In this document: positions 1,501-53,377 of the stretch, one piece after another
How positions within the stretch are numbered: the stretch's first letter is position 1
Layout: each line of letters opens with the position of its first letter
Assembly: GCF_026930045.1 (NCBI RefSeq)
Contig: NC_072740.1
Location: 29,364,384-29,428,383 of the forward strand
Length of the DNA stretch: 64,000 bases
Direction: 5' to 3'
From: Uloborus diversus
Lineage: Eukaryota
The notes under the pieces: model-generated
Told to the model about the DNA's origin: nothing
Database searches by the model: none
The model's input: only the letters and a program-made list of their open reading frames with translations
Position numbers and translations under genes: made by a program

Positions 1501-4500
1501 CCTCTCAAATATTTCATAGCCCCTCAAAATGAGATTAAATCCCTTCTCAAATAACTCCGTCCTCATTAAATATCAATCAGTGCCATGGATCCCATTTGGG
1601 GCACCCCTGTTTTATTTGTAATACAGTAAGTACACACCATGGTTTATATTTACTTCATTCCATCCTTATGTTCTAATTATTTAATACTTCATCACTGCTA
1701 TGGTCAAATAAGGCAGTGAGAAACAAAGGGATGTAAGTGGACTTTTTAAAGCTTCGAGTAAAATAAGTTTAAAACTTAGATCCTAGGTAGGCTTTCATTG
1801 AAATTTTGTTCAAAATCAAACTGTTTAGCAGCGCCTATTGGGGCTACTGGAACTATCTCTTGCCCCAGAAGAGATGTTTTCTTACTGTTTGTACATATAT
1901 CTTCAAATTTTTAATTTTGGCACTAACATCCCTTTGCTGTTATCTCAAATGTTCTTATTTGACTGAAAATATTGTATGGGATTATAACTTGTATGGGATG
2001 TGATGGGGATGATGTCTTAATATATTTGCTAATTAAAGGCATAAAAAATGAAACTAGGCCAAATGGGTTCCAAAAGAAAATTTGAATGGTTTAGTACCTA
2101 ATTCGACTCTTAACTCTTTGCTGTTCTTAAAATTTACCTTTGGTAATTAAAATCCTACGAAGATGAGACTGGGCTATCCAGGATCAGCATAAACTTTTAA
2201 ATTCATTAATACCTGATTCAATTTTTAACTCACTGCTACTTTTCAAGGAGTTTGAGTAACAGACATATGGTTGAGTTTTGTTTGATGTACAGTTAACTCC
2301 CCATTATCTGCAGAATAAGGTGGCACAGTAACCTCGATAAAAGAAATTTGTGGATAATCCACAAAATAGGTTAAAAAAAGTATACTAGTGTATGCATTAC
2401 CTTTAAAAAATCAATAGCACTCACATACATCAAAACTGGAGCTATAATTGATAACAGTATGTCAACAGCTAAGCAAGGATTGCTTAGCATTACAAACTGA
2501 TTACACACATACACGAGGGAAGCATACAAACAGATAACCTGAAACAGATCAAGCTAGGTATTACCAAAAATGTATAGGGGAAGAGTGGGAGTTTTTATGA
2601 ACAAAACTGGTCTAGTCTCTCGTTTAGGCACGTAAGTCGTGTAGAGTTAAAAATTGGGTTTTGCTTGCAGTGTAGATCTGAAAATCAGTAAGTAGTGAAG
2701 ATCTAAAGCAGTAAATAGTTTAGATCTACAAACCAAGTTTGAACTATACTCGACTGCAAGCTTACTTGGCAATGGAGAACAGGGTGGCGACAGGAACTGT
2801 GAAAAAAAGTTCCCTGACTTTTCCCTGATTTACGTTACCAATGATAATGATTTCCTTTCTTTGCTCTACTCGAATTCCATTGTATGTTTGTATAAAATGC
2901 AGTTTTTTAAAAGTTTTAAGTTGTGTGAAGTTGTTGAACTAAAGATATATTTTTTAAAAAATGCTACTTTTTTAACAAAATGGTTAAAAAAAAACATATC
3001 AAGTCAATTTTTTTTGGAAAAAAAACCCTACAAAACAGTATATTAAATTTTTCTGCATGGAAAGATTATAGAAAATTTTTAAAAAATACTTTACTTCCAG
3101 AAACCACTTAGCATAAGAAGTTTAAGAAACTATTAAAATCACTCTTAAAAACATATGCGTATTTATGGTTGAACTAAAAAGTAATTGAAATTATTTTTTA
3201 TTAAATTTTTAAACAGTATAATAATTGTTGCAAGAATAACAAGTAATAGTGAAAGAATAGAAGTAATGTAGTTATTCTTATATAACTAATTGACATATTT
3301 ATGCAAAACAGATGAAACCTTTTGACATCCATTCATAGGGAGCTTTTCTCTAATCAAGAACATTGGTTTTAATGAATGAATACAGCATTTTAACAATAAA
3401 AAATAAAGGTATTTACTTAAGTACAAAGTTAACTCTATTTCAAATGATTTCAGTATGTAACAAAAAAAAATCTTAGATTGCTTTTGTAACAAACAACTTT
3501 GAAATGAAAAAAAAAAGCAATTAGTTAATTTCAAAATATATAAAAGAAGAATACAACTTGGTTATAAAATAAAAGAATCATTTAAGTCTGAAGAAAAGAA
3601 AACCTCTATAATCTGCGGCTACAGCAAGTTGTATAACGGCAAAAAACAAAGTTTTTATTGAAAGTTCAATTTTAGCAATTAAATTAAAAACGCGAAGAAG
3701 TAATAACTTTTAAACTTTTATCGGTATGAATTCAAAAACCAAAGATTCCTTCTTGAAATCATGATTACAGTACGCTTATCACTTCAAGACAAAGTTTTAA
3801 CCTCTTTACTGTGAGAACTTCTTCGCCAAAAAAGGTCCTTTTATGCGTAAACATTTTGAAGAGAAATGTTCACTTCCCAGCAATGCATTTGGTTCCGGGA
3901 CCTCCTGGGTTGCTACTCCTTTCGTTTTACAAAGGAGCTTCTGCTTGATCAATCTAGCCATTATGGGGATCCAGCCCACGATGGTTTCTAAAGAGTGGGA
4001 GGGAACGTTGTCCCTGAGGTGCAAGGGGTAGGTTGACGATGACAGCTGGAATGTATTCATTTTGGCTTTCTCTTTTCTTAGGTTTGTTCTGGAAACCATT
4101 TTGAAATTCTCCTAGCTTCAAAAGGACCTCTAAGCATTTTACTACGAAATTCCGAAATATTTACTTATATTCAGACAGACGTTATATATTCTGTAAATGC
4201 TAATCAAACTAGTTTAGTTATTGAAATTTGCTGTTTAACTTTTAAAACTGCGCAATTAAATCAATTTAATTTAAAAATTGAAAAAATAAGATTTAAAAAA
4301 AAAAAAAAATGATGGAAGTTGAAATAACTTTCCCTTACCACAAACTTTAACATGAAGTTCTTTATATTCTATGGATAATTAGATTGCTTATTAAAACTGC
4401 GAAGCTTAGTATTTGCTACATGATTATACTATGATAAGCAATGTTATTTTTTTACAAACTAACGGTTTGCAGTTTTGCTGCATAAATTTTATAGTAGCTA

Positions 4501-7435
4501 AAAGCTGGGGCATTAACTTTCATCACGTATGACTTGAGTCACACCCATTTACTTGGGTGTGCTACTGTTTCCTTGGTTCCAACCAACTTAAAACCAATGT
4601 TTTCTAGCAATGAAATTCAGACTGAAACATTTATAATTTATCCTGTTCTATATTAATAATTTCAAGCCGGTAAAAAATTCAATAGCGATTGTATTTTTTT
4701 TAAGCGATAAACTTGAATGCTTCGTATATGTTATATTGTCATTCGGAACCGACGTCTACAAACTTACAATTGAAGAAGAGTTTGCTTACAAAATGTAACT
4801 GTAGATGGGGCAAACCTAACCTCGCAGCATTTTGAAGGCTGAGCAGATCCTAATGATAACATCACGACGCTGTCAAGTTAGGTTTACCTCAACTGTAGCT
4901 GAAATCAAAATCAAATGCAAGATCCGACTAAAATATGGGGAGAGGGGCGTAGATAGACTTTGATGCTCTCCCCCCCCCCCCGTAAAATTTAAATTTCAAC
5001 ATAGTGCTTATTTTTCTGAACGTACGCCCTCATACTTTTTGCGCCCCCCCCCCCCCGCACCGCAGGGTTGTCATGTGCGCCACTGGATTTAGCCATTGGC
5101 TAAATCAAAATCTTAGTCACTTGGGAGCATTTCAAAAGCAGGGGCCGTTGGCTACGGCCCAGTTCCCAGATGGTAATTCTGATTACGCCAGTGACTGCTA
5201 TAATACCTAAGCACTAAATTGATTTTTCTTTCAGCCTTTCTTGACCTGCGGGCCGGCAACATCTTTTTAAAAGATCCCGGACCGGTCAGTTTTTTTTCTT
5301 GCCTTATTTATTATTATTTTTTTATATGAAAAAAAAAAGAAAATGACTCGCACAACTTGAAAAATCTGCTAAAAATCTAATCTGACCGGAGAATCCCCCC
5401 CCCCTTTTTTTTCTCCTTTTCTTTTTATTTTTTGTTTTTTTTTCTTTTTTTTTCTCAAAAAAAAAGGGAAATTTTTGACTTGCGGATTGTTGTGGAAAAA
5501 GTTAGTGGGCAGTCGAGTTTTTTTTTTTTACTACATATTAGAGATTTGTTGCAAAACATTTTATAGCAAAGGTTGTAGATAGCTAATTGTTGTAACAACT
5601 ATCCATAAGTAAGCATTTGAGAAAAATCAGACAATTTTGAAAATTAATCACCAAATTCATGCAAAAACCATTACATAGGATATTATTAGATTTTCACATT
5701 TATTTCTTTATTTGTTTTTGAATAAAGAATTTTTAATTTGTTTATTTCATAGCTGCGTCACCTGGGCTTCAATCGGTCTACCTCGAAAATAAAAGTTATG
5801 TCAAACGATCAGGCTAAATAATATTAAAAATCTTCAAAATTTCCTGACGAAGTGAGAAAAAGTTACCAAAATAGAAAATTTTTAAATCCCCCAATTATTG
5901 AAAAAGCCTCAAAACAAAAGGTAGAATTTTTTTGTTCATATTTGAGAAAAAAAAAACGGCAACAGATCTCTCTTCTTAATGATTTTCGTCACGCTACTAA
6001 TTTTTATAAAATCATTGTTCAACAATGACCGTAAGCAGCAACGAATTTCAAATTGAAGGCTTACCTACATTTTAAGATTGAAATTAGTTAAAAACAGTTG
6101 TAACTCGCGTTCTAATCACCTTGGGACATTGGAACAAATGATGCAGAAAAATCAGTGGTTTCCATGGATATTTTATTCTAATTTTTGTGAGTATTTTTTT
6201 GCCCTCACATTATAGAAAAACGCCATTTTTGGATCTAATTAGAATTCAAACGGGTTTTTTTTTTCGCGTTCGAAAACTCCCTTACGTTCTTTCTTGGGTG
6301 CTCGAGTACCTCCCTGCCAAGTTGTTCGAGATCCGACGTAAACTGTGGATTTATATAGGGCGCCATACACACACATATACGTATATATATATTGAATGCT
6401 TTATTTATATAGATTTTAAATCGAGGACGAGCAAAAAACCCTGAGGACCGGCAAATTTTTCCTCCTTACTGGTACCGGTCCACCCAACCACCAAGCAGGG
6501 GAGGGCCCACAAATAAAGATGGTGACTAGCGACTCAAGTATTGTTGTCGGGTCGTGGGAGTAATTATTCTTTCGGCGGAGATAGGGGGGGGGGGGTATTT
6601 GGCTAAATTGTCATCTGCGCAGTTTTCTTCATCAGAAGATTCTTGGTCATTAGAATAAATACTATAATCAGAGCTGTCGTTGCTCGAATAATCTGCGTCT
6701 GACATTATGAAGCATATAAGTATTCGCTAAGAGGAAAATGTTCTAAATGCATCGAATGTTCAACAAAGAATGAAGGCCTTCTCGTTGTAGATACAACAAT
6801 GTAGCTACTGTGAAGTGCGCATGCGCAGCCAGTATACACCTTATCAGTCAGACATTGCACCCATGAAAAGCAAGAGCAAAGAGTTAATCCCCTTTCAAAA
6901 GAAAACCTGAACTATTGTAGAAGAATCAACGTGGGAATTCGTGCTTGAATGATCATTAGAATCTAGTTTCTGTGATTAAAATTAGTACTCGAAAAAGATC
7001 TGGGTTGTGTTAGTATATGTTTAAACTAATGCACATATATTATACGTGTATATATAAGTAAGAGGGGAAAGCATACATTTTTGTATTTTTATCCTTTCTT
7101 CTTTCAAACTATTAAAATTTGTTCTTGTTTCTTAATTTTTAATCTTCATGGCTAAACGTCCCAAGTGACGGTGAAAATTTGATCATGATAAAAACTAAAT
7201 TGCTTGGATTCGGTTGCAACATTTGTTAAAAGGGAGGAGAATAAAAGGGGGAGGGGAATAACGAAAAGAGCGTATAAGAAGTATTCTTCTCCTAATATCG
7301 ATCCAATTTATGTGTATAATCAAAGCATCATTTAATTTTCTTGTTCATATTTATTGAAAAATATATCGTGAATTGTAGGAATATTGCTTCGTTTTGAATA
7401 CATCCAAGATTAGTAAAATAAATACCTTTGTGTCA

Positions 7436-7676
7436 AAAAGTAAAATAAGAAGTGACACAACGTCAAAAAAGCACAAATTACAGATTACTCCAGACACGAT
7501 CTTCGGCGTTACAAGGAAATGCCTTTTTCATTGCAAAAAAAATGAGCTTTCGGATGTCTTTTCCCTCCATAAGCTCATTTCTTTTGCGTTGAAAAAGGCG
7601 TTCCTTGTAACGCCGAAACACGTGTCTGCAGTAGTCTGCAATCGTGCTTTTTGACGTTGTTATTTTTTATTTTACA
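7436..7676. mobile_element. Foldback/MITE-like element, ~240 bp
   Basis: Left arm gtaaaataagaagtgacacaacgtcaaaaaagcacaa...cggcgttacaaggaa pairs with right arm ttccttgtaacgccg...ttgtgctttttgacgttgttattttttattttac (~80-bp imperfect arms). A second inner palindrome aaatgagctt...aagctcattt sits in the centre. Confidence 0.5.
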
Positions 7677-10600
7677 TTTTAGATTGTTTACTATATGCAG
7701 TAGAACCTTGCATGTCCGAATCTTCGGATACTCCGAACAGATTTTTTTTTTTTTAATTTTATGGAAAGTATTACCGGAAGAGAACTAAATGTGTTAAAGG
7801 AAAAAAAAAAGAAAAAGAATTTTTCAGCACATATTGATTTGAAACACATTGAAAAAAAAAAGAAAAAAAAACGCAATACAGGATTACCTCATTTACCTTT
7901 AACTGAAAATATTAAAATAAACTTTACTTGAAATTTACTTTACATTAAAGATGTTTTGTGGTGAAGAGACAGGTCAAGTTTTTACTGGTGAAGTGATGAT
8001 ACTTTTGACGAGGAAGAAATACTATTCCTTAGGTCTCATAAACATAATGTCTGTTCGTGAAACCTAGAGTCTTTTACTATGTTTCACTGATTTTAAATAT
8101 TTTTTTCCTATAGCAGAACTATATTTTACTTTTTCAGCTTCAGAATGAAAAGTAAGAATATTCTCTGATCAATTTCTTCTAAAACCAGTCATCTTGTGTT
8201 GAATGTATACTAGAAATAAAAATGGGATTGAATATTTATTTCGTTGAAATGGAAATTTCTTTGCATAGGTATTCGCTGCAATGAGATTTTACTGTATTAT
8301 TTAATGATTTTTTTTATCATTGATTAAATTTATTATTATTTTATTTATTTATTTATTTTTTGACATTTTTTTGACTTAAGATTTTCTATTCAAATTCACC
8401 AGCTGTTAGTGAATCTTGCTATTATAAAACTTCACATTCCACAATTGTGTTTGTGGCAAAGAAAGTAGGGGTAATGGAATGCACTGATACGACAGAGAAC
8501 CTGTTTCCGTATTCATCTATCTCTCTTGGGAGTGTCTGAAGTCTTTTATTCGCATCGGATTCTAAGCCTTTCTGAATAGATATCTTTTTGGGGTGCAAAC
8601 AGCTCACACACACGTGTTGTATTTTCTACCTTGTCACTCTATAATAGTAAAAGTGACCCGATGTGATAACTGCTCCTTTTTAAATCTTATTTTTAAAAAA
8701 AAAAAGAAAAACAGGAAGAACATATTGATTAGAAGGAAAACGACTAGCCTCAACTTGGGGTTTGGGACCACAAAAAGCAACAGCATAAGTAAAGGTGGTT
8801 TTGAACGACTTTACGTAACAATTTGCATTATTTTTACCATAGAAATTCAAATATTTCGGGGGGCAGCATCCCTTCCCCTTCGTTCTCTTAAACTACATCA
8901 TTGCAGATTGATACATTTAATTGATTCACATTATGCCACGATTTTTTTGCACTACGTTTAGTTTACACAAACTAAAACGCCGCACAAGTTTAGATTCAGC
9001 TGACTCTGTAATAAAATAAAAACGTCCAACTAGATTCTCTCTCTGTTTACATATATTTATAATCGACTAGTATGGGGGACAACTGCCCTCTTTTCTTTCA
9101 AAAGAAAAGGTTCCTATTATTTTATAAAAATTAAAAAATGTAGCATCGAATTGAAAGAAGTACCATATGACCATTAGTCCCAATATTTGAGGTCGTGTCC
9201 CGGACATTTTGAGAAAAGGTCTGTTAATCAATAATTACGTTAAAATTAAATTTTAGAAAAAGTCACCTGTACACTGTACAGGCACCGTCTACCTACCCCC
9301 CTCCCCTCAGGTATCTCCAACTTTTTTGTGCACCAGCTGCTTATGTTCTCTCTAATTATATCTTTATCTCTTGCACTCTTGCAAGGAAAGTGACACAACT
9401 CAAAATTTGAGAAAAACGTACTAGATATTTATTTTAAATCTAAATTTAATGCTCTTTTTTTGCCAACAAAACTCGCACAATACTTCTGGCATATATCGAA
9501 TTTCTCGGGTAGAGAAAGAATTTCCGACCCCGCAATGTGATATAATTTCAAGTCGTCAGGATGCATCCCACCCCTCCTAGGAGCTCTGAAACATTTAACT
9601 GAGACACCCTGCATATATAATAATGCATCATGTTTCTCTGCAGTTTTTTCAGTTCGAGCTTTACCAGGTGTATGAGAAGCGTTTCGCAATTTCATCTTAA
9701 AATAATTAATATTTTCCTTTGAAAACATTTGCATAAAAAGTGCAATATGTAATATTTTTCTATTTTTAAATAAAAACTTGAAGCACTAATTGATTAATAA
9801 GTTTAACATCATTTAAAACAGCACTAATTTGCAAAAAAAAAAGAAGGTGCAGATAGAAGGGTATTGCAGTGAAGAGGAGGATTGCAATGAGAAACTTGTA
9901 ATATAAGAAGATGTAAGCTTTGAATGTTATAAGGTAATCAGAATATCCAATAAAGTCCATATCTAAGTTAAAAAAATTTTTCTATGAAAAAGGTCTTCCT
10001 TGCCCCCCCCCCCTCCTTTCCCGAAACATGTAACTGGAGTTTTTTGGTAAACTTGTGCTGTTTCCAAAGTTGTTGATTTTTTCCCCATTTACTTTTTAGT
10101 TCAGATATTTATTTATTTCATACTAGGAAATTTATTCAGATCTTGACGGAAAGGCATTCTGTAGAGAAAAGAAAAGCGCAAAACAGATATCGGTATAACA
10201 AGTTAGAACTTTATCTTGAGAGGGGTTTGTCGTAACAGTTCGAAAATAAATATATTTCAGAAGACTTGAATTGCAAATATCAGTCCAAGTTCAGGATTAA
10301 TTTTAAGTGATAAGTATTGTAGATTACCTCGAATGTTTAGGGGAGTACTCTGAACACATTGAATTTGCTCTAAAAACCTTTCATACTTCCTCTTCAAGAG
10401 TTGATAAAGCATAAGAGTTTCGTGATGGTATTACATACTTCATAAAAAATAATTTAATTAATGGAAAAGTATGCATTTTATACCAATAAGCTTGTATCTT
10501 TTTGCTTTGAAAAACGGGCTTGTAACTCCAAAACAGATGACAGCATTTTTTTTTGGGGGGGGGGGGACTTTGCATTTTTTTAAAACCAAAATGGTGCTTT

Positions 10601-11307
10601 TATTTCATTATTTTAAACCACTTGTAAGCATGATCTTTTTTGCAAATATTAAAAATTTAATTTTACAGAACTGTGTTGTGTGACAAGAAAATATTCCTCT
10701 CAATTCCGGATTTAACGCAAAAAATCGAAAAGAATTAATAATAAAAAAAAAAGAGATACATGAAATAACCCACATTATTAGATTAAGTTCATATTCCATT
10801 GGACAATAGTGTCACTTAGAGTTCCTAGGGACGCTAGTACCATGAACTTTCATTTGATAAGAGAGATTAAATTTATGATATTTTTGAAAAAGTATAATTG
10901 ACAGGTTATTTATATTTGAACAGATTAATAAAGATTTTATGCTGGGACTCTAGTTATACTTCTATATTTATTTCAGACTAAGATTTCTAATTCAGATCTT
11001 TTTGTATTTGATAATTAATTATAATGAAAACTTCATTTTCAGCATTTTGCGAGAATATTCATTTTTAGTACCTAATTTCAATCTAAAAATACACAACTTC
11101 TGAGTACACATCCATTTCAAGCAGCGCTAGGATGAACTTACTCATAGCTCTCGAACACGTGCGCCTGTCCAGTGAGCGGAAACAAATTAGATCGACAACT
11201 GACTCTCCACCTACTCGCGGTTGCTCCTTTTTTCGGAATTTATCTTAAGACACCCGCGGTTAGTTGCTTCGAGTACTGCAGGAAAGTCCACTGCCCCTAC
11301 TCAAGGC

Positions 11308-11493
11308 GCTCGGGCTACACAGTTAAAGGTACATAAACCTCACCCCGAGCTCAGCTCGGGCTACGCAGTTAAGAGGTTAAAGGCAAAGGAGCTAAGGCAT
11401 TAATGAAGGCTTCATCTTTGCCTGTATGGTTGTTTATTTTACGTCGCATTGAAAGCGTGAAAGGAAATTTCAAGCTTGGTAAAATAAACAACC
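11308..11493 (+). other. Locally GC-rich block with three consecutive stem-loops (possible structured ncRNA or SINE/MITE core)
   Basis: Stem 1: gctcggg...cccgagc at 11308-11350. Stem 2: ggcaaag...ctttgcc at 11382-11422. Stem 3: a perfect 15-bp stem ggttgtttattttac / gtaaaataaacaacc at 11428-11493 with a ~36-nt loop. The motif gctcgggctac(a/g)cagttaa is duplicated. Confidence 0.3.
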
Positions 11494-11747
11494 TAACAGA
11501 CACAGAAGCAATCTTAGGAAGTTCATCCTGTGGTTAATAAGTAAGATTCAATACCTTGACGTTGAGGAAAAAAGATGCACAAATATGCGGCAGTGTATAA
11601 TCGCACCTCATTAATTATATACTTTTTTTTGAACAGATAATTGGCAGGAAATGCGTAGTGAATTAGGATACTTAATTTTGTAAAGCAAAAAAAAAAAAAA
11701 TCTTCATAAAATCATTTTTCCCTGATTTTTTGTTATTTTTTCGAAAT

Positions 11748-11805
11748 TCCCTGATAGTTCCCTGACTTTTCCCTGATTAATAAAGTTCCCTGACTTTTCC
11801 CTGAT
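11748..11805 (+). repeat. Subterminal tandem 21-mer repeats (GTTCCCTGACTTTTCCCTGAT, 2 full copies plus partials) abutting the right TIR
   Basis: Direct reading; the same 21-mer occurs once at 2809-2829 next to the left TIR. Confidence 0.7.
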
Positions 11806-14800
11806 CTGTCGCCACCCTGGAGAAATAAACTGAGGCCCAGCCAAGGAAATAGTTCCTAGCGCCTTGTCCGATATTCGGGTGAAAATATGCTCTTCACTTT
11901 AGAAATTGGATTAGTTATAACTAACTAAAATAACCCACACATATATAAGCTTCTTCTGTTAATTTCTGTCAATTGTCAAATATTTTCAATTTTATGAGAG
12001 AAGGCACAGCCTTTCATCCATTTGAATTATATGCGCCGGTCAATAGCAGCTCATATACAGGTAGCAATCTCTTCTTATTTGTGAAGTAGGTAGGGAAGGT
12101 AGCTAGTAAGTGTGACGCGTTATCTGTTAACTCGGTTTTTCTTCCATGCATTTTGACATCACTGCCAAGTAACTTTGCAAACAAGTATAGTCCGTTTTCT
12201 ACAATCTTGGAAGGTTTAATGTCACTGGAAGGGAGGGGAAGAAAGAAATATGAATGTCTGAAAATATGTTTCCACTTGCTAAGTTGAAATAGTCGCATTT
12301 ATCAACATTCAGTTCATTATTGCTGAAAATAGTTTTTTTTTTTTTTTTTTTAATGTCAAAAACCCTGGATAATTGAGAGTTTACTGTATAAGAGTAGTTG
12401 GCAAGACAGCTAGATTAACAGCTTGCAGCTGATGTCTTAGCGTCTTTTTTTTTTTTTTTTGCTTGCCCCCTTTTATGGCAAATTAGTGTACACTTTTGTT
12501 CTCCTATTTTACTGCTATGCTAAAAAAAAAAAAAGATTTTTTTAAGTGAGTGATTCTGTGCAGAAAATAAAAAAACATATTATTGTTAGCATGCATAAAC
12601 AAATCAGAGACTGAAAAGGTGTTAAATCACTTGCATGCAGGAATAAAGTCTTTATATTAAAAACATTAAGAACAAAAACAAATCTTTTTTTATTTGTATT
12701 TTATTCTTGCAGAAAAATCTGTCATTTCAAGTTGCAATAAACAGTTGTGTGATTCATGAAACAGTAAACGCTGAACTTTTTCAACAAATATTTCTTTTTC
12801 AGCAGCACATTCATTTTCTTTTGTGATTTGTTTGAACATTTCATGAAAAGCCTCTATGTTTTCAATAAAATTTTATTAAGTCAGGTTAATAACAATTTGT
12901 TTCTTCAACCTCCTTGAAAATTGCATCTTCAGCTTTATTAATCAGTCTCACTGTAAGAACTTTCGAAACAGTTTCTTACTGAAGTTTCATACAAACTCTA
13001 AATGCAAACAATAGAACAAGAGAAACCACAGGTGTTATTCCTTTATTGTTTTTCAAGAGAAGAATAAACAATTTTTCAGATTTAAATTGAAAATTTTTTC
13101 TGCTCTTTTAACTGCCAAATTTTGAATTGTCTTTAAAAAAAACTTCGAGTAAAAAAAAGTAAATTCCAAGATAGAGAGGGGGGATAATTTACATGATATT
13201 GAAAGACTAAGGAATCAGGACCTAATAAAAAGATATAGTATTATTCAAGTTAACACAAGAATAATTCTTAAAACATACCAAGGTGGTTCAAAAATACATG
13301 CAAAAAAAAAGAAGTTTTTCCTAGATAACAGGACACCTCTCAATATTTTTAGACTTGTGGATAGTAATATACTGGAAGAATTTTAGCTCCTGTTTCAACT
13401 GAAAGAGGGTGTTCAAACAGCTGCCCCAAACTCTGTAAGTATGCGGAGGGGGAGGGGGGGTAAAAAAGGCACTGAACTAAAAAAACAATGCTACATATTA
13501 TAATATACACGAGTAATATGCATATACATTGCAATAAAATAATCATTCACAAAAAAACAGCTGGAAAAATTAAATGTTTCTAAATATGTGACATTTTATA
13601 CGCTACGGCTAATGTTAACTTGAGGGGTCATTGAGCACCCTCTTAAAATGTGAGTAAGACACTAAAAATTTTACCGCAAAATACTATTAGTAAGTCTAAA
13701 AAAAACAGAGGGTGTCCTGGACTCTGGCTGAAAAATAGTTTTTTTGAAACACTGTAATACTTACGTTCCCTTTTCATTCCATTCTAAACAGTTAACACAG
13801 CCTGCATGTCCCTGCAAAAACAGAAAGAACTTTAAGCTCTAAAATTAATATTGTTACAGTATACCAAACAAAAAATAAAGTAACACTTTAAATGATAAAT
13901 ATTGGAAGAAGCAATTTTTGATTCAAATTCTAATGCTATGATGATGACAAATCAAATAATACATGATGAAATCTATATGCATTTCAGGTAGCCAAGCTAT
14001 ATATTTATGCAAATGACTTGATTACCCTTCTGTTGTACCACATCACTTTTTGTGCCTAGCACCACAAGTAAAAGTTACAATAAAAATAACTAAAAGGTTC
14101 CAAAAATCATCAACAACATAAAAGCTCAATGTATGTTGATGATTTTTGAGTCAGAACTAAAGTGCTACAAGTTATGAAACTGTATTTGCTACCTTTTTCC
14201 ATAATTTTTAGCACAATGCACTACTTTTAAAAAGAAATAGTGCAGTGAGTAGTGCAACACAACAAAAAAAAACTTGCTTGCAGCAATTTCTGGGTTAGTT
14301 CAGTAAAACAAACAAGGTTCAAAGGCAACAATTAATTTGATTACAAATCCTATGCATATATCAGTGTATGTGATGAGACTGTCTCTGTGACCGAGTATTT
14401 TAGAATGAGAATTATGTCAGATGCTTCAAAGTAGCAAGTTTTTCATAAAGGTTGTCAGTACTTCTTTATCTTATTGTTGCTTTTTGGAAATCTGACAATC
14501 AGAATCACATGTGTGGTTAGACTTAGATACAAAAATTGTTTATGTTTTCATAAATTTTTCAACTACTTGAAAGTTTCATCAGGGTACTGTTGAACTGCCC
14601 TGGCTAGCATACAATACTGAATCTAGTGTAATCCAAAAATATCAAAACAAAAATTTTTCAGAAACATATAAACTTTACCCAATTAAAAAAGAAGCTAATA
14701 ATTTCAAAATAGTCAAACCACACCTATGCTGTTTGACTATTAACTCTTAGTGTTTTAAGCTGTAGTCAGGTTCCAGTTTTTCAAACTTTTTTTTTTATAT

Positions 14801-18347: not shown

Positions 18348-18622
18348 TGTTAGAAACTGAAGTGAAGAGAGGTCCAATTGAATGATAGATGTGTGCACGA
18401 GAAAACGTCAGAACACTGAAAAATAAAATTAAAATCTGTGGGAGTTTAAAAATGGTGTTGTAATGCACAAATGTTTTTGGCTCTGTAGTTTTCTGGTAGT
18501 TTAGCAAAATAAATGTCCTTTTTATGAAGAAAAGGTGAACTTCTTGGATTCCAGCACCACGCATTATTTAATGCAGTCCTGATAAAATAACTCATTGTTA
18601 GAATTTGAGTTTGTATTCAACA
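18348..18622 (+). repeat. BEL/Pao 5' LTR (275 bp)
   Basis: Identical by eye to 22789-23063; starts TGTTAG and ends TTCAACA. Confidence 0.9.
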
Positions 18623-18628
18623 TAATTT

Positions 18629-18646
18629 TGGCGTCCGCGACAGGAC
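18629..18646 (+). promoter_or_regulatory. Primer-binding site TGGCGTCCGCGACAGGAC
   Basis: Begins with TGG 6 nt after the 5' LTR; complementary to a tRNA 3' end (...GTCCTGTCGCGGACGCCA). tRNA identity not determined. Confidence 0.6.
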
Positions 18647-18659
18647 GGGTGCTTGGAAC

Positions 18660-21600
18660 TTGTATAAGAAGATGGATTTAACTACATTGAAAGCTCAGAG
18701 AAAAGGACTGAGGGCGTCTTTTACCCTCAGTATGAAAAAAATTGAAGCTGAACTTTTGAAGGAAATTACTGGTTCGGATGAACTTTTAATTTTAAGAAAT
18801 CAGATTTCTGACAAATTCAAGCGGCTAGATGATTGTCAGAGCATAATATCTGAGCTGTTGTTGAAAGATAAAAATGCCGAGGAGGCTTATTATGAAGATT
18901 GTGAAGAAGCAGAAAATTATCGGGACAAGTTTATTCAAATTTGCTCTCTGCTTGATTTAAAATTTGAAAATGTTCAGCGTAATGGTAACATTAGTAAGCG
19001 CAACTTTAAGCTTCCGACGATAGAACTTAAAAAGTTTAACGGCGAAGCAAGAGAATTTTTAAATTTTTGGAGCCAATTCAAGAAAATCCATGAGGACAAG
19101 GGCATTGATAATGAAGATAAAATGCAGTATTTAATTCAATCGATGGAACCTGGTTCGAAGGCAGAAAGATTAGTGCTGAGTTTTCCTGCTACCGGAGAAA
19201 ATTATAGTAGAGCAATACAGCAGTTAAAGGAAAGATTTGGCCGTGATGATCTGCTGGTGCAAGTGTATGTTCGAGATTTATTGAGACTAGTTATGAAAAA
19301 TGCTGCCACAGGACGGGGGAAAGCTGATCTTCCATCCCTCTATGACGAATTGGAAGGAAAACTTCGTGCGTTGGAAACTCTTGGACGGACCAAAGAGAAG
19401 TATGGAGATTTCTTGACACCTTTGGTTGAGAGCTGTCTGCCGGAAGAAGTTTTAGTAACGTGGGAAAGAAGCCGTAACCATGATCTAACCGAAGATAAGA
19501 ACTGTCGCACTTTAGAGCAGTTAATGAACTTTCTTCGCCAAGAAGTCAATGGAGAAGAAATGGTTCGCCTCGCAAGAACTGGCTTCGGCACGAACTCAAA
19601 TTTGCGCAAACGAGAGCCCACAACTGAGAAGGAAAGTGACCTAGCGACAGCTGCAGCGTTAGTAAGTACTGAGAAAAAGGGTAAGCGATTTGAAAGTTGT
19701 ATTTTTTGTGGAAAAAGTCATCCAAGTAAAAGATGTTTCATTGCAAAAAAGATGACTGTAAATGAAAAACAAAAAATATTGTTAAAAAAGGGGGTTTGTT
19801 TTATATGTTTTAATTCAAATCATATTAGTAAATATTGTAATGTAAAAAGAGAGTTAAAATGTAATGGTTGTGGAGAACCTCATTTTTATGTAATGTGTCC
19901 AAAGCTGGAAAGCAAAAGTTGTGAAGCTAAGGATGTAGTAGTTTCTAAGTCTGAAAATTCTCTCTCTAACTTTGATAAAACTCAAACTGTATTTTTGCAA
20001 ACTCTGTGTGTTCGGATTAAATGTAATAATCGAGAAAAAATAATTCGGGCTTTGGCAGATTCTGGTAGTCAAAGTAGTTATGTAAGTCAGAAAGTTTTGT
20101 CTGAGCTGAAAGCAACTCCACTTCGTGAAGAAACAGTGATTCACTCGTTATTTGGGGGGAGGGAAACGAACCCAAAACGGCATAAGATATTCACTGTTGA
20201 AGTGAGGGGTTTGAAAGGGTCTTTTGCTTGTAGTTTTGAAGCTCTTTCTGAAAGGAAAATTTGTAGTTTTATACCAAAAGTTAGCAATCCTTATATTTTG
20301 AATGAATTAAAGAAAAAGAATATTGAAGTTTCTGATTCCCTTTGTAAAATAAAAGAAATTGATCTTTTAATAGGGGCAGATGTTTTAGGAAAATTGCTGA
20401 CGGGACGTTCAGTAGATTTAGAATCCGGTCTTACTGCCGTAGAAATGAAGCTTGGGTGGACTGTTATGGGTAAGCAGAACACAAATGAGAAAGATGATGT
20501 TTTCAGAACATTATCGATGCATGCTAAAAGTATTCCTTTGAATGAATTGGGGGAACTTGAAAGTATAGGAATAACAGATCCCACTTGCAATGTTAATAAG
20601 AAAGCATGCATAGGAGAACATTTAGCTGAATTTGAGGATAAATTGAAAATTCTTCCTTGTGGAAGATATGAAGTAGTGCTTCCTTGGAAGTATGATTTTT
20701 CGAACTTACCAGATAATAAGGATTTAGCCTGGAAAAGGCACGAAAAAATGATCAGTAAGTCAAAATGTAATAATTTTATAGCGGATTACCAAAATGTATT
20801 CAAAGAATGGGAAAACTTGAATATTATTGAGCGCGTACCAGATTCGGAATTAGAGAATAAGTGCCACTATCTACCACATAGGCCTGTTATAAAAATCGAT
20901 AGTAAGACCACGAAAGTTCGGCCTGTTTCTGATGCTTCAGCATCCCAGAGAGGTAAACCTTCTTTGAATGAATGCTTGGTTAAAGGAATGAACCTCATTG
21001 AACTAATGCCAGATATTGATAGATTCCGGTTGCATCCTATAGGGTTGAGTGTAGGCATTGAAAAGGCATGTATCCCTCCTGAATATGAGATTGCACAGAA
21101 GTTGGAAGGTTCTTTCTTTGTGGACAATTGTGTAACAGGGGTTCATAATACCGAAGAAGAAGCGAAGTTCATCGAACAATCGCAACTTATTATGTCAAAG
21201 GGATGTTTTAACTTGCGAGGGTTTGAAAGCAATGTAGCTTCTGAAAATGTTACGAAGCATTCAGGGGAAGCGTCTATTTTAGGAATTTTATGGAATTTGG
21301 ATAATGACACTCTAAGGTGTAATATAAATATAGAAGCATTGACTTGTGAAACAAAAATTACAAAGCGTTTAATTTTATCTACAGTGCAAAAGATTTTTGA
21401 TCCCATCGGCTTATTAAGCCCTACTACATTGCTTCCTAAACTGATACTGCAAGATGCTTGTAAGTTAAAACATTCCTGGGATTTAGAACTACCCCCTGAT
21501 ATTGTAAATAAATTTTTGAAATGTTTCAAGGAAATTGCATTGTCAAATAACGTAACTTTGCCATGCTACATAATAACCAATTCTACAACAGAACTGTATG

Positions 21601-22073
21601 TATTTGTGGATGCTTCTAAAGAAGCTTACGTGGCGTGCGTCTACGATCGTTCAGTAGTGGAAATTGAAGTTGAAATATATCTCGTTAGGTCTAAAACTAG
21701 AGTAGATCCACTAAAATCACTGAGTATTCCTCGGTTAGAGCTTATCGCTTGCTGCATAGGGGATAGACTTTTGCAAGAAAAATGGAAATTGACTCAGCCT
21801 GAGTTGTGGAAACATATTTTTGGAACAATGAATATAGCTGATGTATTGTCGCGAGAATTCAGCCCTAGAGAATTCTTTGACTTCAATTGGTGGGAATTAC
21901 CGACCTGGCTGAAGTTGGCGCTAGAAAAATGGCTATTATGTGAAGTAGATTGGAGACCAAAAGAAGTAGACGCGAAGAGAAAAATATTAACAATTACCAC
22001 TATTGATCTGAATCTGGACGCACCGCTTTTGCCTCCAAAGTTGGTTCGTATTGTTAATGAATTACTAAATTGA
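18660..22073 (+). CDS. BEL/Pao Gag-Pol polyprotein: gag, CCHC knuckles, aspartic protease, N- and C-terminal RT fragments, RNase H; RT core deleted in frame
   Basis: 1137-aa ORF. Gag DUF1759-like region: KLPTIELKKFNGEAREFLNFWSQF...QQLKERFG (~19000-19410). Zinc knuckles: CIFCGKSHPSKRC, CFICFNSNHISKYC and CNGCGEPHFYVMC (~19700-19900). Protease: ALADSGSQ and LLIGADVLGKLL. RT start: CHYLPHRPVIKIDSKTTKVRPVSDASA...GLSVGIEKAC. This is followed almost directly by the RT C-terminus FFVDNCVTGVHNTEEEA...GFESN, so ~110 aa of RT are missing near 21075-21115. RNase H: YVFVDASKEAYVACVY and SIPRLELIAC. The NIADVLSRE...NWWELPTWL tail is also present. Confidence 0.85.
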   Translation: MYKKMDLTTLKAQRKGLRASFTLSMKKIEAELLKEITGSDELLILRNQISDKFKRLDDCQSIISELLLKDKNAEEAYYEDCEEAENYRDKFIQICSLLDLKFENVQRNGNISKRNFKLPTIELKKFNGEAREFLNFWSQFKKIHEDKGIDNEDKMQYLIQSMEPGSKAERLVLSFPATGENYSRAIQQLKERFGRDDLLVQVYVRDLLRLVMKNAATGRGKADLPSLYDELEGKLRALETLGRTKEKYGDFLTPLVESCLPEEVLVTWERSRNHDLTEDKNCRTLEQLMNFLRQEVNGEEMVRLARTGFGTNSNLRKREPTTEKESDLATAAALVSTEKKGKRFESCIFCGKSHPSKRCFIAKKMTVNEKQKILLKKGVCFICFNSNHISKYCNVKRELKCNGCGEPHFYVMCPKLESKSCEAKDVVVSKSENSLSNFDKTQTVFLQTLCVRIKCNNREKIIRALADSGSQSSYVSQKVLSELKATPLREETVIHSLFGGRETNPKRHKIFTVEVRGLKGSFACSFEALSERKICSFIPKVSNPYILNELKKKNIEVSDSLCKIKEIDLLIGADVLGKLLTGRSVDLESGLTAVEMKLGWTVMGKQNTNEKDDVFRTLSMHAKSIPLNELGELESIGITDPTCNVNKKACIGEHLAEFEDKLKILPCGRYEVVLPWKYDFSNLPDNKDLAWKRHEKMISKSKCNNFIADYQNVFKEWENLNIIERVPDSELENKCHYLPHRPVIKIDSKTTKVRPVSDASASQRGKPSLNECLVKGMNLIELMPDIDRFRLHPIGLSVGIEKACIPPEYEIAQKLEGSFFVDNCVTGVHNTEEEAKFIEQSQLIMSKGCFNLRGFESNVASENVTKHSGEASILGILWNLDNDTLRCNINIEALTCETKITKRLILSTVQKIFDPIGLLSPTTLLPKLILQDACKLKHSWDLELPPDIVNKFLKCFKEIALSNNVTLPCYIITNSTTELYVFVDASKEAYVACVYDRSVVEIEVEIYLVRSKTRVDPLKSLSIPRLELIACCIGDRLLQEKWKLTQPELWKHIFGTMNIADVLSREFSPREFFDFNWWELPTWLKLALEKWLLCEVDWRPKEVDAKRKILTITTIDLNLDAPLLPPKLVRIVNELLN

Positions 22074-22088
22074 ACTCCTGGCAAATCA

Positions 22089-22826
22089 GTGTTGAATTAT
22101 GAAGAGTTGAACGCATTGATATGTGATTGTGAATTTGTAATTAATTCAAGGCCTCTAACATACGGGTCGGAAAACCCTCAGGAGTTGATTCCTCTCACAC
22201 CTTCAATGTTTCTTATTGAAAACCGTAGTTTTGATGTTACAGATATTGGTCATGTGGATTTGCAAAGTCCAAAAAAGAGAAAAAGATATAGATATAAGCT
22301 GTTCAATGATTTAAGACAGCGTTTCAGAAAAGAATATTTAGGCCAATTAATTCAAAAACACTATGAGAAGCCAACCCGAGAGCCAAGAGTTGGCGAAATT
22401 GTTTTAATTGGCGACGATAATAAAAAACGCGTGTTTTGGCCTTTGGCGAAAATTATTGAATTGATTCCTGGACGAGATAAAAGGGTTCGCGCTGTTAGGC
22501 TCAAAACTCAAAATGGGATTTTTGTTCGTCCAGTGGAACGTGTTTACCCATTGGAGATACGTACTGATGATGAGGCGGTTGCAATTTCCGACAAAGCCAT
22601 GAGTGTGATGGAATCAAATCCTAAGGAAGGTGTTCAGAAGACTTCTGTTAAAAAGTGTTATCCTGATATTGTTCTGGAAAAATATACCAGATCTGGAAGG
22701 TGTGTGAAAGTACCAAAAAGACTGGATCTTTTAAATAATGAGTGTTACATGTTTGAGACCCTTCCCAGAGTCTCAAAGGGGGGAGGTATGTTAGAAACTG
22801 AAGTGAAGAGAGGTCCAATTGAATGA
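22089..22826 (+). CDS. BEL/Pao integrase C-terminal region (DUF5641-like) only; integrase zinc finger and DDE core absent
   Basis: 245-aa ORF reading LNYEELNALICDCEFVINSRPLTY...LTPSMFLIE...VGEIVLIGDDNKKRVFWPLAKIIELIPGRDKRVRAVRLKTQNG. This is the typical C-terminal tail of BEL/Pao IN. It starts only 16 nt after the gag-pol stop, so the ~250-300 aa IN catalytic region is deleted. The ORF runs into the 3' LTR. Confidence 0.75.
   Translation: MLNYEELNALICDCEFVINSRPLTYGSENPQELIPLTPSMFLIENRSFDVTDIGHVDLQSPKKRKRYRYKLFNDLRQRFRKEYLGQLIQKHYEKPTREPRVGEIVLIGDDNKKRVFWPLAKIIELIPGRDKRVRAVRLKTQNGIFVRPVERVYPLEIRTDDEAVAISDKAMSVMESNPKEGVQKTSVKKCYPDIVLEKYTRSGRCVKVPKRLDLLNNECYMFETLPRVSKGGGMLETEVKRGPIE
22775..22786 (+). 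promoter_or_regulatory. Polypurine tract AAAGGGGGGAGG
   Basis: Purine run 2 nt upstream of the 3' LTR start. Confidence 0.7.
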
Positions 22827-23063
22827 TAGATGTGTGCACGAGAAAACGTCAGAACACTGAAAAATAAAATTAAAATCTGTGGGAGTTTAAAAATGGTGTT
22901 GTAATGCACAAATGTTTTTGGCTCTGTAGTTTTCTGGTAGTTTAGCAAAATAAATGTCCTTTTTATGAAGAAAAGGTGAACTTCTTGGATTCCAGCACCA
23001 CGCATTATTTAATGCAGTCCTGATAAAATAACTCATTGTTAGAATTTGAGTTTGTATTCAACA
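22789..23063 (+). repeat. BEL/Pao 3' LTR (275 bp)
   Basis: Identical by eye to the 5' LTR; preceded by the PPT AAAGGGGGGAGG. Confidence 0.9.
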
Positions 23064-23435: not shown

Positions 23436-24484
23436 TTGTTGGGCTAAATGCCTTTATTTTTGGTTCTTGAAGGATTTCACCAATATTGTTTAAAAGAAAA
23501 ATCATTTTGTGACTTACCTTTTGCCATTCCGAGAGAAAACTTTGCGCGAAGAATCCCATCCACCTGCCGCCAACACTCAAATGTCCGAGTTTGAATCGGA
23601 AGTGTTTGGAAAACATGCGGCATGCTATGATTGGTTGTTGTCATTCGGCAGATGTCGGTAAACTTCCGAAAGAGCACGTGTCAATGACGTGATGAAATCA
23701 TGTTGAGGTGTTAAGTGCTGAATGCCAAATTAAATAAGAATTGTGTAACCGGCAAGCTGTGTTTTCTCCGGGTTGTGTTGTTTTGGCAATATGCAAATTA
23801 GGTAACGTCACATTGTTTCTGGAAAGGCCGAATCTGGCTATAAATACGCAGACCGGCAGGAGCTCGATCGCTTCGCTTCGTTTTTTTACTTCTACTCGTC
23901 TCCTCGTCTTGTGTTGTCTGTGTCCCGTGAACGTGTTCGTCAAATGTCATCCTAAATTTTTTTGCTATTGGCCTCTTGGTGAGGTCTGGTTTTTCCTGGA
24001 AAAGCACTGATGATGTTTTGAGTTTGGAACCCGCGTGTTGTGATGACGTCTATAAAAGCAAAGAGTTCTAAGTTTCCCTGATGTGGGTCTTTTGTTCTCC
24101 TGCGGAAGAAGATCGCGTCCATCCCTGGTATACCTTTCCCTGATGTGGTGAACTGTTGCTCACGCGGTGTGAATCGACCTGCCTGCAATTCGTGGAAATT
24201 GCCATGCTGTCCAACGACCGGTGAGGCGTCACCTTGGATCACCAACAGGACTTTTAATCCATGCATGGACTCATTGTAAGATCTCTTTTTCTAATTTTTC
24301 CCGGGGAACAAATCATTGTGTTGTAACCAATTTTCAATATGTGTCAAATAAATGTTTTTCAGTGTAAAGAATGATTCATGTTTTATTTTCTTCGGGCAGA
24401 CCACTACCTCAAATTTTTAGTTGGAAATGAGTTGCCTAATTTTCAGCTTAGCTGTAGGCCATAAACCTCAAATTATATCCAACA
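23436..24484 (+). repeat. copia 5' LTR (1049 bp)
   Basis: Matches the 3' LTR except for a few SNPs (e.g. t/c at 23750 vs 29068; g/a in gaggtctGgttttt vs gaggtctAgttttt; gatc vs gaac near 24240 vs 29557). Contains a TATA box and AATAAA. Confidence 0.9.
23839..23846 (+). promoter_or_regulatory. TATA box (TATAAATA) in LTR U3; same motif in the 3' LTR near 29156
   Basis: Sequence context ggctataaatacgcagaccggcagg. Confidence 0.5.
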
Positions 24485-24486
24485 GG

Positions 24487-24497
24487 TGGTAGCAGAG
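24487..24497 (+). promoter_or_regulatory. Primer-binding site TGGTAGCAGAG, complementary to the 3' end of initiator tRNA-Met
   Basis: Lies 2 nt after the 5' LTR. Eukaryotic tRNAi-Met ends ...CCUCUGCUACCA, whose reverse complement is TGGTAGCAGAGG. Confidence 0.75.
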
Positions 24498-24524
24498 TCG
24501 TGTGGTTGATCTGCCCGGAGAAAA

Positions 24525-26333: not shown

Positions 26334-26343
26334 TTTAACCATA

Positions 26344-28620: not shown

Positions 28621-28740
28621 ATGAGGGGGGCGTATCAAATTTTTGAACTGTTTTTCAAATGTATCTTTTGTAAATATAATATGAATGTAGTTAAATGTTT
28701 TTAATGTATATAATGTGTTTTTTTTGATGAAATTCCTTCA

Positions 28741-28752
28741 AGAGGGGGGAAC
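28741..28752 (+). promoter_or_regulatory. Polypurine tract AGAGGGGGGAAC
   Basis: Immediately upstream of the 3' LTR. Confidence 0.7.
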
Positions 28753-28753
28753 T

Positions 28754-29801
28754 TGTTGGGCTAAATGCCTTTATTTTTGGTTCTTGAAGGATTTCACCAA
28801 TATTGTTTAAAAGAAAAATCATTTTGTGACTTACCTTTTGCCATTCCGAGAGAAAACTTTGCGCGAAGAATCCCATCCACCTGCCGCCAACACTCAAATG
28901 TCCGAGTTTGAATCGGAAGTGTTTGGAAAACATGCGGCATGCTATGATTGGTTGTTGTCATTCGGCAGATGTCGGTAAACTTCCGAAAGAGCACGTGTCA
29001 ATGACGTGATGAAATCATGTTGAGGTGTTAAGTGCTGAATGCCAAATTAAATAAGAATTGTGCAACCGGCAAGCTGTGTTTTCTCCGGGTTGTGTTGTTT
29101 TGGCAATATGCAAATTAGGTAACGTCACATTGTTTCTGGAAAGGCCGAATCTGGCTATAAATACGCAGACCGGCAGGAGCTCGATCGCTTCGCTTCGTTT
29201 TTTTACTTCTACTCGTCTCCTCGTCTTGTGTTGTCTGTGTCCCGTGAACGTGTTCGTCAAATGTCATCCTAAATTTTTTTGCTATTGGCCTCTTGGTGAG
29301 GTCTAGTTTTTCCTGGAAAAGCACTGATGATGTTTTGAGTTTGGAACCCGCGTGTTGTGATGACGTCTATAAAAGCAAAGAGTTCTAAGTTTCCCTGATG
29401 TGGGTCTTTTGTTCTCCTGCGGAAGAAGATCGCGTCCATCCCTGGTATACCTTTCCCTGATGTGGTGAACTGTTGCTCACGCGGTGTGAATCGACCTGCC
29501 TGCAATTCGTGGAAATTGCCATGCTGTCCAACGACCGGTGAGGCGTCACCTTGGAACACCAACAGGACTTTTAATCCATGCATGGACTCATTGTAAGATC
29601 TCTTTTTCTAATTTTTCCCGGGGAACAAATCATTGTGTTGTAACCAATTTTCAATATGTGTCAAATAAATGTTTTTCAGTGTAAAGAATGATTCATGTTT
29701 TATTTTCTTCGGGCAGACCACTACCTCAAATTTTTAGTTGGAAATGAGTTGCCTAATTTTCAGCTTAGCTGTAGGCCATAAACCTCAAATTATATCCAAC
29801 A
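28754..29801 (+). repeat. copia 3' LTR (1048 bp)
   Basis: As above; preceded by the PPT AGAGGGGGGAAC. Confidence 0.9.
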
Positions 29802-44237: not shown

Positions 44238-44989
44238 AGTTGGCCGTTTCTGTTCAAGGTAGTCAACCCTGGAATAAAATCCACTGGTCTTAAATTGTTA
44301 TAAAAAACGATGGTGAAGTCGTAATTCCTATTCTTGTCAAGCTATTTTGTCAAAGAAGATGGAAGATTTTCTGCTGTTTCTTCTGCCCTGTGTTCACGCA
44401 GAATGGCTATGGCAGGAAGCTTTGGTGTCATAGCCATACTAAATCAATTCTCCTGTTGTAGCATTTCAGTTCACAGACACTTATTGGTTCATAGTTGCTA
44501 CCTAATTTTCAGGTTTGGTATTTTATTACATTTTTGTTCATCACTTGATCAACTTCCTTCTGTTGTAAGATTGATATATCATAGACATAAAAAAATTTGA
44601 AAGATAACAACATTTAAATTTCCGAAAGCTTTCTCCTGCGTTAATATTACTTTGAATGTGATACCAATACTTGTACTATGATACTATACTATAACTTTCA
44701 TTAATGTGTTTGCTGTTAACCAATTGTCGAATATATACATTTGTTAACAAATCGAGCGCCTAATATCAAAGTACCGTCAACAACTTGATAATTCGAAGTC
44801 CCAAGAGACCTGCTAAAACGTTCGAGTTATTGGTAGTTCAAGCTATGAGAAGTTTCCACAACTGTCTCAAGAGTTTGAGACCCAATTAAAACTTTGAGAT
44901 AAAGGAATATTTCGAGTTATAAGCTTCGAGTTTTCGAGATCTAACTGTACTCGGCTGAAACGAACATTTAGTTTGTCCGTCAAGTAGGC

Positions 44990-53374: not shown

Positions 53375-53377
<3 letters not shown>

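Follow-up and report, generated by a model that had tools for sequence, protein, structure and literature searches.

Positions 2780-11819 of the window (i.e. the whole 64,000-nucleotide stretch of Uloborus diversus DNA analysed here) are probably a single 9,040-bp insertion of a non-autonomous class II TIR cut-and-paste transposon belonging to U. diversus or a close relative. Judged by its TIR and TSD features alone, the chances that this element belongs to the hAT5 group of the hAT superfamily are about even. The segment is built as a single TIR DNA-transposon insertion would be, as proposed in a preliminary description of the window: its TIRs are perfect over 14 bp, the TSD is 5 bp long, and subterminal repeats are present. 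The following features were identified:

2775-2779, no strand: left copy of the TSD, GAGAA, identical to 11820-11824
2780-2793, + strand: left TIR, CAGGGTGGCGACAG, with a hAT-type 5'-CAG terminus; found twice in the window when up to two mismatches are allowed
2809-2829, + strand: left subterminal 21-mer, GTTCCCTGACTTTTCCCTGAT, comprising two TCCCTGAY octamers (2811 and 2822) 11 bp apart; the shared unit reaches 2806-2830
2830-11711, no strand: non-coding interior ('filler'), including the ORFs at 3806-4099 and 9429-9734, most likely chance ORFs, and a foldback
11719-11755, + strand: inner part of the right array, consisting of two isolated TCCCTGAT octamers (11719-11726 and 11748-11755)
11757-11777, + strand: right subterminal 21-mer, inner copy, exact
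11785-11805, + strand: right subterminal 21-mer, outer copy, exact, abutting the TIR
11806-11819, - strand: right TIR, exact reverse complement of 2780-2793
11820-11824, no strand: right copy of the TSD, GAGAA, identical to 2775-2779

The termini were found where they had been placed previously, the 14-mer and its exact reverse complement each being abutted by one copy of the direct repeat GAGAA. Within the 64-kb window, the 14-mer is present in these two copies only, even when up to two mismatches are allowed (0.04 expected). Similarity between the two ends ceases precisely at the base adjoining the matching 5-mers, and a 5-bp flank match has a chance of ~0.0016-0.002 at the local base composition. 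The 8-bp flanks, ATGGAGAA versus GAGAAATA (a GAGAATAA-type comparison), differ, with three of eight positions being equal; the duplication is therefore 5 bp, and a decayed 8-bp TSD was ruled out. The random expectation was obtained from 300 Markov-1 windows of 64 kb, in which a 14-bp inverted repeat no more than 20 kb apart and with equal 5-bp flanks was sought. As 14 of these windows (mean 0.047, ~5%) contained such a pair by chance, the TIR and 5-bp TSD taken alone represent weak evidence and are only suggestive.

Decisive evidence that the two ends are related is provided by the unit of 23-24 nt beside both termini. This unit is exact over ~21-24 nt, lies in direct orientation and, together with the TIR, accounts for all similarity between the ends. 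The 21-mer contained in it adjoins both termini, as had been reported, with one copy on the left (2809) and two on the right (11757 and 11785), all exact, and none is expected by chance. The octamer TCCCTGAY is present 14 times in the window (2.5 expected), and eight of these copies are located in the two ends, i.e. at 2811 and 2822 on the left and at 11719, 11748, 11759, 11770, 11787 and 11798 on the right. They lie within 50 bp of the left terminus and within 100 bp of the right terminus, and are mostly spaced by 11 bp, corresponding to one helical turn. As suggested earlier, the subterminal repeats resemble a binding-site array, the octamers being putative transposase binding sites.

All eight end octamers, as well as all 21-mers, are on the + strand, and are thus direct rather than inverted across the ends. 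Since all of these octamers, two on the left and six on the right, point the same way, the two ends are asymmetric. The one-way orientation of the motifs and the asymmetry of the ends had been overlooked in the preliminary description. Such a one-directional, 11-bp phased subterminal array represents a neat natural case of transposon end asymmetry.

The interior was shown to contain no ORF of more than 131 aa, and a six-frame Pfam search of all interior segments 32 aa or longer yielded no match at E<=1. The ten longest interior ORFs produced a single weak match to AIM3 (E 0.056; 14.8 bits against a cut-off of 25.4 bits). No protein homologue of 14 interior ORFs, joined as a single query, was found among 5.8 billion proteins, and exact look-ups of ORFs from the window returned no match. 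Neither an Rfam family nor a tRNA was found in the interior, and self-BLAST did not detect the interior elsewhere in the window. The ORFs at 3806-4099 (-) and 9429-9734 (-) are present as described, as is the foldback (~245 bp, about 7440-7686, with arms at 7477-7527 and 7592-7642). The two ORFs had been put forward as transposase candidates, but a profile search revealed no Pfam domain in them and no homologue was found; they are most likely chance ORFs. Because the interior lacks a Pfam domain in any frame and a protein homologue, this copy is non-autonomous. That its ends have only the TIR and the 23-24-nt unit in common is what would be expected of functional end sequences enclosing unrelated filler.

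In comparisons covering 61 bases (14 of the TIR, 5 of the TSD and 42 across the 21-mers), no difference was observed; the probability of this outcome is 0.16 at 3% divergence (0.97^61) and 0.04 at 5% (0.95^61). The insertion would thus be fairly young, with a divergence of no more than ~5% between the compared end sequences. The proposal that the interior carries later insertions was not upheld, in that no datable nested-insertion marks were seen and the pristine ends speak against much insertion after arrival. A LINE insertion bounded by a 19/22-nt match (5999-6020 versus 11699-11720, near an A14 tract) was also considered and rejected, the match being judged fortuitous because no RT remnant is present.

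An alternative, though an unlikely one, is that the mobile unit was a short MITE-like element of ~150-300 bp (2780-~2831 plus ~11712-11819), to which the 9 kb were added later by nested insertions. The end-specific sequence indeed amounts to only ~52 bp plus ~108 bp, and the interior resembles the AT-rich, TE-littered intergenic DNA of spiders, with its foldback, poly-C/G runs and poly-A tracts; very recent TE activity in the window, apparent from two LTR pairs that are 100% identical, is also consistent with this reading. However, the ends and the TSD are free of mutation, implying a divergence of ~5% at most, and nested TEs of such an age would be expected to be recognisable, whereas the interior displays no ORF, Pfam domain or clear nested TSDs, and no LTR or TIR pair besides the small foldback. 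MITEs are small, typically under ~800 bp, and present in high copy number; at 9,040 bp between the TSDs, the element is not a MITE by size. A macrotransposon composed of two complete elements side by side was ruled out, as only two TIR copies are present.

Within the 64-kb window, no second copy of the ends was found, and neither flank recurs as a paralogous empty site (self-BLAST). Public collections were searched with the pattern TCCCTGAY-N(0-30)-CTGTCGCCACCCTG, which retrieved 13 metagenome, 9 prokaryote and 0 viral matches. Because their spacing is arbitrary and the 21-mer occurs in none of them, they represent fortuitous matches in GC-rich bacteria. A literature search for the terminal sequence returned nothing relevant. 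In the surrounding sequence, Pfam was likewise run on ~85 stop-free stretches (55 aa or longer) of 559-43084 that lie neither in the element nor in the two LTR elements, and on 10 selected segments from 44959-63095; neither set gave a match, nor did the segments at 45.1-45.6 kb and 49.3-49.7 kb, which had looked Tc1/mariner-like by eye. The sequence has a GC content of 33%. A true LTR element is located at 18348-23063, with 275-bp LTRs, TGT..ACA ends and the TSD ATAAG.

With respect to superfamily, hAT elements are recognised by short TIRs that begin with CAG and are accompanied by subterminal repeats, and their canonical TSD is 8 bp. Their transposase comprises a BED zinc finger, a DDE core with an insertion domain and a hATC dimerisation domain. 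The hAT5 group, which is known but uncommon, carries the RepeatMasker class name DNA/hAT-hAT5. According to a supplementary figure legend, nucleotide 3 of hAT termini is always G (Kapitonov & Jurka 2005, PMC1131882, Fig. S7 legend), and later papers credit an earlier report with the description of hAT5, a hAT group whose TSDs are 5 bp long (Kapitonov & Jurka 2007, Repbase Reports 7:1188, via PMC12730594; PMC9004415). The group is known from cnidarians, other invertebrates and fish (PMC9004415); no published report of hAT5 from spiders was found in the literature. The Uloborus element was shown to share with hAT5 a 5-bp TSD (GAGAA, in a single copy of the element), a short TIR (the 14-bp CAGGGTGGCGACAG) that conforms to 5'-YARNG and starts with CAG, thus having G at position 3, and short subterminal repeats, represented by the eight TCCCTGAY. 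It differs in that this copy lacks a transposase. The element had been regarded as fitting no common superfamily and as possibly unclassified, but its CAGGG terminus and 5-bp TSD match the published hAT5 group.

Two other classes of element were rejected. LTR retrotransposons, with which a 5-bp TSD is compatible, have long terminal direct repeats and TG...CA ends; the termini in this case are inverted, and the direct repeats common to both ends are 21-24-nt units only. Ginger1 and Ginger2 have TGTNR termini and 4-bp CCGG or 6-bp RTATAY targets (PMC2836005), and were ruled out by the termini CAGGG...CCCTG and the TSD GAGAA. The hAT5 assignment is weakened by a recent preprint showing that TIR and TSD features can be labile inside a superfamily; they are reported to vary within a Transib lineage (bioRxiv 10.64898/2026.08.26.747230).

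There is a slim chance that the element instead belongs, as a non-autonomous representative with an atypical CAG terminus, to the Transib (RAG1-like) lineage, a reading to which the variation just cited lends itself. It shares with Transib, the classical superfamily with 5-bp TSDs, the length of the duplication and a CA..GTG-type terminal heptamer, CAGGGTG, which departs from the RSS-like CACAGTG or CACAATG mainly at position 3. Furthermore, an A-rich block, GTGAAAAAA, is located 12 bp past the left heptamer, A-runs being common at 33% GC. Transib termini, however, begin with an invariant CAC within a CACAATG-like heptamer (PMC1131882), a rule from which the G at position 3 deviates, and at the right end nothing resembling a nonamer follows at a spacing of 12 or 23 bp, so that a nonamer is not consistently present. 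In addition, Transib favours GC-rich targets, whereas GAGAA is situated in AT-rich DNA, and Transib has not been described with arrays of short subterminal repeats, which are characteristic of hAT. Little probability is assigned to a lineage outside both hAT5 and Transib, i.e. an undescribed transposase that generates 5-bp TSDs, cuts at CAG and employs a one-way, helically phased TCCCTGAY array; if such a lineage were real, the unequal copy number of the array would render the two ends functionally distinct. That there was no insertion at all, and that two related fragments of a dispersed or rearranged repeat lie 9 kb apart with a coincidental GAGAA match, is very improbable: although TIR and TSD alone arise in ~5% of random windows and the 5-bp match has a probability of ~0.002, the exact 14-mer is inverted while the 23-24-mer is direct, which means that the ends are not simple inverted or direct duplicates, similarity stops exactly beside the matching 5-mers, and the motifs are phased at 11 bp, as transposase binding sites typically are.

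Under the preferred reading of a non-autonomous TIR transposon, the transposase would act in trans, its source being an autonomous relative at another genomic locus. The N-terminal sequence-specific domain of this transposase (in hAT, a BED zinc finger) would bind the subterminal motifs, after which the enzyme would pair the two unlike ends and cut at the CAG termini. Insertion would then proceed over a 5-bp staggered cut at GAGAA, with repair of the stagger duplicating the 5 bp, and the 9-kb interior would have travelled as non-coding filler at the latest move. The pre-insertion site is expected to read ...GGCAATGGAGAAATAAACTGAGG... (also ...GCTTACTTGGCAATGGAGAAATAAACTGAGGCCC...), with GAGAA present once. 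Weighing against this reading are the fact that the available evidence is a single copy, the size of the filler, 9 kb being large for a non-autonomous element, and the strictly one-directional motifs at both ends, which are unlike the textbook symmetric layout.

The element is ordinary selfish DNA, which carries little weight beyond annotation and opens no new question. It would enlarge the repeat library of a uloborid spider genome by one family, possibly the first documented hAT5-type family in spiders, and its clean ends can be used as a query for the autonomous partner and for the mobility of large, filler-laden non-autonomous elements in spiders.

The TIR of the Uloborus element includes GTGGC, which matches the Hermes/hobo subterminal motif. 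In hAT elements, as exemplified by Hermes of Musca domestica, the ends are asymmetric and have short subterminal repeats of varying orientation that are bound by the BED domain, the asymmetry being needed for activity (PMC10368747). Hermes and the Uloborus element are alike in their dissimilar left and right ends and in their short subterminal repeats near the TIR. Conversely, the TIRs of Hermes measure 17 bp, its TSD is 8 bp long (nTnnnnAn) and it is autonomous, whereas the Uloborus element has its richer array at the right end, with all motifs in one direction. A further parallel is offered by Ds-like elements of maize (Ds2 and Ds-l4), which contain filler DNA and resemble Ac in nothing but their TIRs and subterminal hexamers (PMC3260210). 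These elements differ from the Uloborus element in their 8-bp TSD, modal length of ~1 kb and AAACGG motif, compared with a 5-bp TSD, 9 kb of filler and TCCCTGAY. In both cases, common TIRs and subterminal transposase-binding repeats (putative in Uloborus) are all that is shared around unrelated non-coding filler, and mobilisation in trans, as occurs for the maize elements, is proposed for the Uloborus element.

The 14-bp termini, GAGAA flanks and 21-mer subterminal repeat that the preliminary description had placed at both ends of the element (2780-11819; 9,040 bp) were all confirmed as exact. The features of the element ends are as follows:

2780-2793, + strand: left terminal inverted repeat (TIR), the 14-mer CAGGGTGGCGACAG
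11806-11819, - strand: right TIR, exact reverse complement of CAGGGTGGCGACAG
2775-2779 and 11820-11824: target-site duplication (TSD) GAGAA, a direct repeat abutting the outer side of each TIR
2809, + strand: left copy of the 21-mer, beginning 15 bp inside the left TIR
11757 and 11785, + strand: right copies of the 21-mer, the outer of which touches the right TIR
2811 and 2822, + strand: two TCCCTGAY motifs, left end
11719, 11748, 11759, 11770, 11787 and 11798, + strand: six TCCCTGAY motifs, right end

No third copy of the TIR 14-mer was found in the 64-kb window at up to two mismatches (0.04 expected). The 8-bp flanks do not match (ATGGAGAA versus GAGAAATA), so that the duplication is truly 5 bp in length and a decayed 8-bp TSD is ruled out. 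By themselves, the TIR and TSD constitute weak evidence for an element, since a 14-bp inverted pair at most 20 kb apart with matching 5-bp flanks was also obtained in 14 of 300 Markov-1 random windows (mean of 0.047 per window).

Decisive evidence, over that of the TIR and TSD, is provided by an exact 23-24-nt unit which is common to both ends and located within 30 bp of each terminus. The 21-mer (GTTCCCTGACTTTTCCCTGAT) occurs in three exact copies, where none is expected by chance, and was absent from all matches in metagenome, prokaryote and viral collections, these being chance matches only. The true repeat unit is really the octamer TCCCTGAY, of which the window contains 14 copies (2.5 expected), eight being positioned within the two element ends. 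Most of these end motifs are spaced by 11 bp and all are on the + strand, showing that the subterminal repeats are direct across both ends rather than mirror-image. The ends are unequal (two motifs on the left versus six on the right), and their similarity is limited to the TIR and the 23-24-nt unit. The left end has ~52 bp of end-specific sequence (2780-2831), the right end ~108 bp (11712-11819). Together, the TIRs, TSD, shared unit and phased motif array support the earlier interpretation as a TIR DNA transposon.

The interior (8.9 kb between the ends) contains no ORF longer than 131 aa. Among its ten longest ORFs, Pfam returned a single weak, sub-threshold AIM3 match (E 0.056, under the curated cut-off), while all interior stop-free segments of at least 32 aa in six frames yielded nothing at E<=1, and 14 concatenated interior ORFs had no homologue among 5.8 billion proteins. 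This copy is therefore non-autonomous. The two ORFs previously proposed for a profile search against transposase families (3806-4099 and 9429-9734, both - strand), which were included in these analyses, possess neither a Pfam domain nor a homologue and are most likely chance ORFs. No Rfam family or tRNA was found in the interior, nor was a second copy of its sequence found elsewhere in the window. Poly-A tracts are also present, and the interior resembles AT-rich, TE-littered intergenic DNA with the following features:

~7440-7686: foldback of ~245 bp, with arms 7477-7527/7592-7642 (80%) and 7518-7554/7566-7602 (84%)
4964-4980, 5040-5056 and 9997-10013, with G-runs at ~6584 and ~10556: homopolymer runs (C or G), each 10-13 nt long

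The foldback, whose tips read GTAAAATAA...TTATTTTAC with no obvious TSD, may be either a MITE with a palindromic structure or a repeat that forms hairpins. The C/G runs may represent a spider-specific repeat hallmark or an assembly/sequencing feature.

The window as a whole is eukaryotic, judging by its GC content of 33%, its lack of long host ORFs and the presence of two LTR retrotransposons. Its further features are:

18348-23063: complete BEL/Pao LTR retrotransposon (275-bp LTRs, 100% identical; TGT...ACA ends; 5-bp TSD ATAAG)
23436-29062: second LTR pair (310 bp, 100% identical), enclosing ORFs 24525-26333 and 26344-28620
37615-38424: inverted-repeat structure, 170-nt arms (91%), 470 nt between
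61118-61874: inverted-repeat structure, 103-nt arms (84%), 551 nt between
45167-45437: inverted-repeat structure, 110-nt arms (82%), 51 nt between, adjoining a 16-bp tandem array (45027-45138)

The BEL/Pao element is very young; its pol ORF (18660-22073; 1137 aa) exhibits 89-92% identity to Uloborus diversus proteins, which places the host among the uloborid spiders. Against other spider genera, the best matches at full-length coverage have 46-59% identity, and some partial ones of shorter length rise to 60-72%. The second LTR pair begins ~370 bp downstream, with no clean TSD at its exact-match boundaries, and a strong positive GC skew at 18-28 kb coincides with the two LTR elements. The three inverted-repeat structures have the appearance of foldbacks or small TIR elements. 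Another non-autonomous DNA element family is probably represented by segments 38813-39532 and 42462-43346, two copies of the same repeat that have diverged to 71-81% identity. They share one orientation, are separated by ~3.7 kb and both contain inverted repeats. By eye, translations of 45121-45639 and 49323-49748 resemble pieces of Tc1/mariner transposase, an unconfirmed likeness for which Pfam gave no match at E<=0.01. To the left of the 9,040-bp element, 50 bp from its insertion site, is a 23-bp tandem repeat (AGTGTAGATCTAAAGCAGTAAAT; 2669-2728) of 2.5 copies with 81% matches.

The most likely reading of positions 2780-11819 is that a non-autonomous cut-and-paste DNA transposon inserted here once. 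The TIRs, TSD, end-specific phased motif array and absent coding capacity are seen in the sequence itself, from which we infer a mechanism whereby a transposase supplied in trans would use a sequence-specific domain to bind the TCCCTGAY array, and would then synapse both unlike ends, cleave at the CAG termini and integrate at GAGAA with a 5-bp stagger. A fairly young age is suggested for the insertion, as all 61 compared bases (14 TIR, 5 TSD and 42 across the 21-mers) are without difference, an outcome with a calculated probability of 0.16 at 3% divergence (0.97^61) and 0.04 at 5% (0.95^61). A short MITE later bloated to 9 kb by insertions is a live though less likely rival, with a precedent in maize, where most Ds-like elements prove to be short when extraneous insertions are discounted (PMC3260210). 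Nested insertions that young should still look like TEs, and none is recognisable in the interior. Carriage of the 9 kb as filler at the element's last move is therefore favoured.

Transib was the sole eukaryotic superfamily with 5-bp TSDs known in 2005, and its TIRs show perfect conservation of CAC at positions 1-3, whereas hAT termini always have G at position 3 (Kapitonov and Jurka 2005, PMC1131882). The CAG terminus thus lacks the defining Transib feature and carries that of hAT, making a Transib-lineage element improbable despite the TSD length. Something undescribed is a slightly fainter prospect, and that the locus is not a transposon is the least probable of all. Ginger, whose termini are TGTNR and whose targets are 4 or 6 bp long (PMC2836005), is ruled out. 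An LTR element is ruled out by the termini, in contrast to the genuine LTR element nearby, with its 275-bp LTRs, TGT...ACA ends and TSD ATAAG.

The suggestion that the element fits no common superfamily was not borne out, as a CAG terminus with a 5-bp TSD fits hAT5. Judged from the end features of one copy with a single TSD, membership of hAT5 has roughly even chances; TIR and TSD features can drift inside a superfamily (preprint, bioRxiv 10.64898/2026.08.26.747230). The description of a hAT group that makes 5-bp TSDs dates from 2007 (cited in PMC12730594); hAT5, 'unusual in having 5 bp TSDs', is reported from invertebrates and fish (PMC9004415). The element is useful for spider-genome repeat annotation and as a query for an autonomous partner, and is otherwise ordinary. 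Short TIRs, short subterminal repeat arrays and functionally required end asymmetry are established hAT traits (Hermes, PMC10368747; Ac/Ds, PMC3260210), and the element adds to a known kind of transposon.
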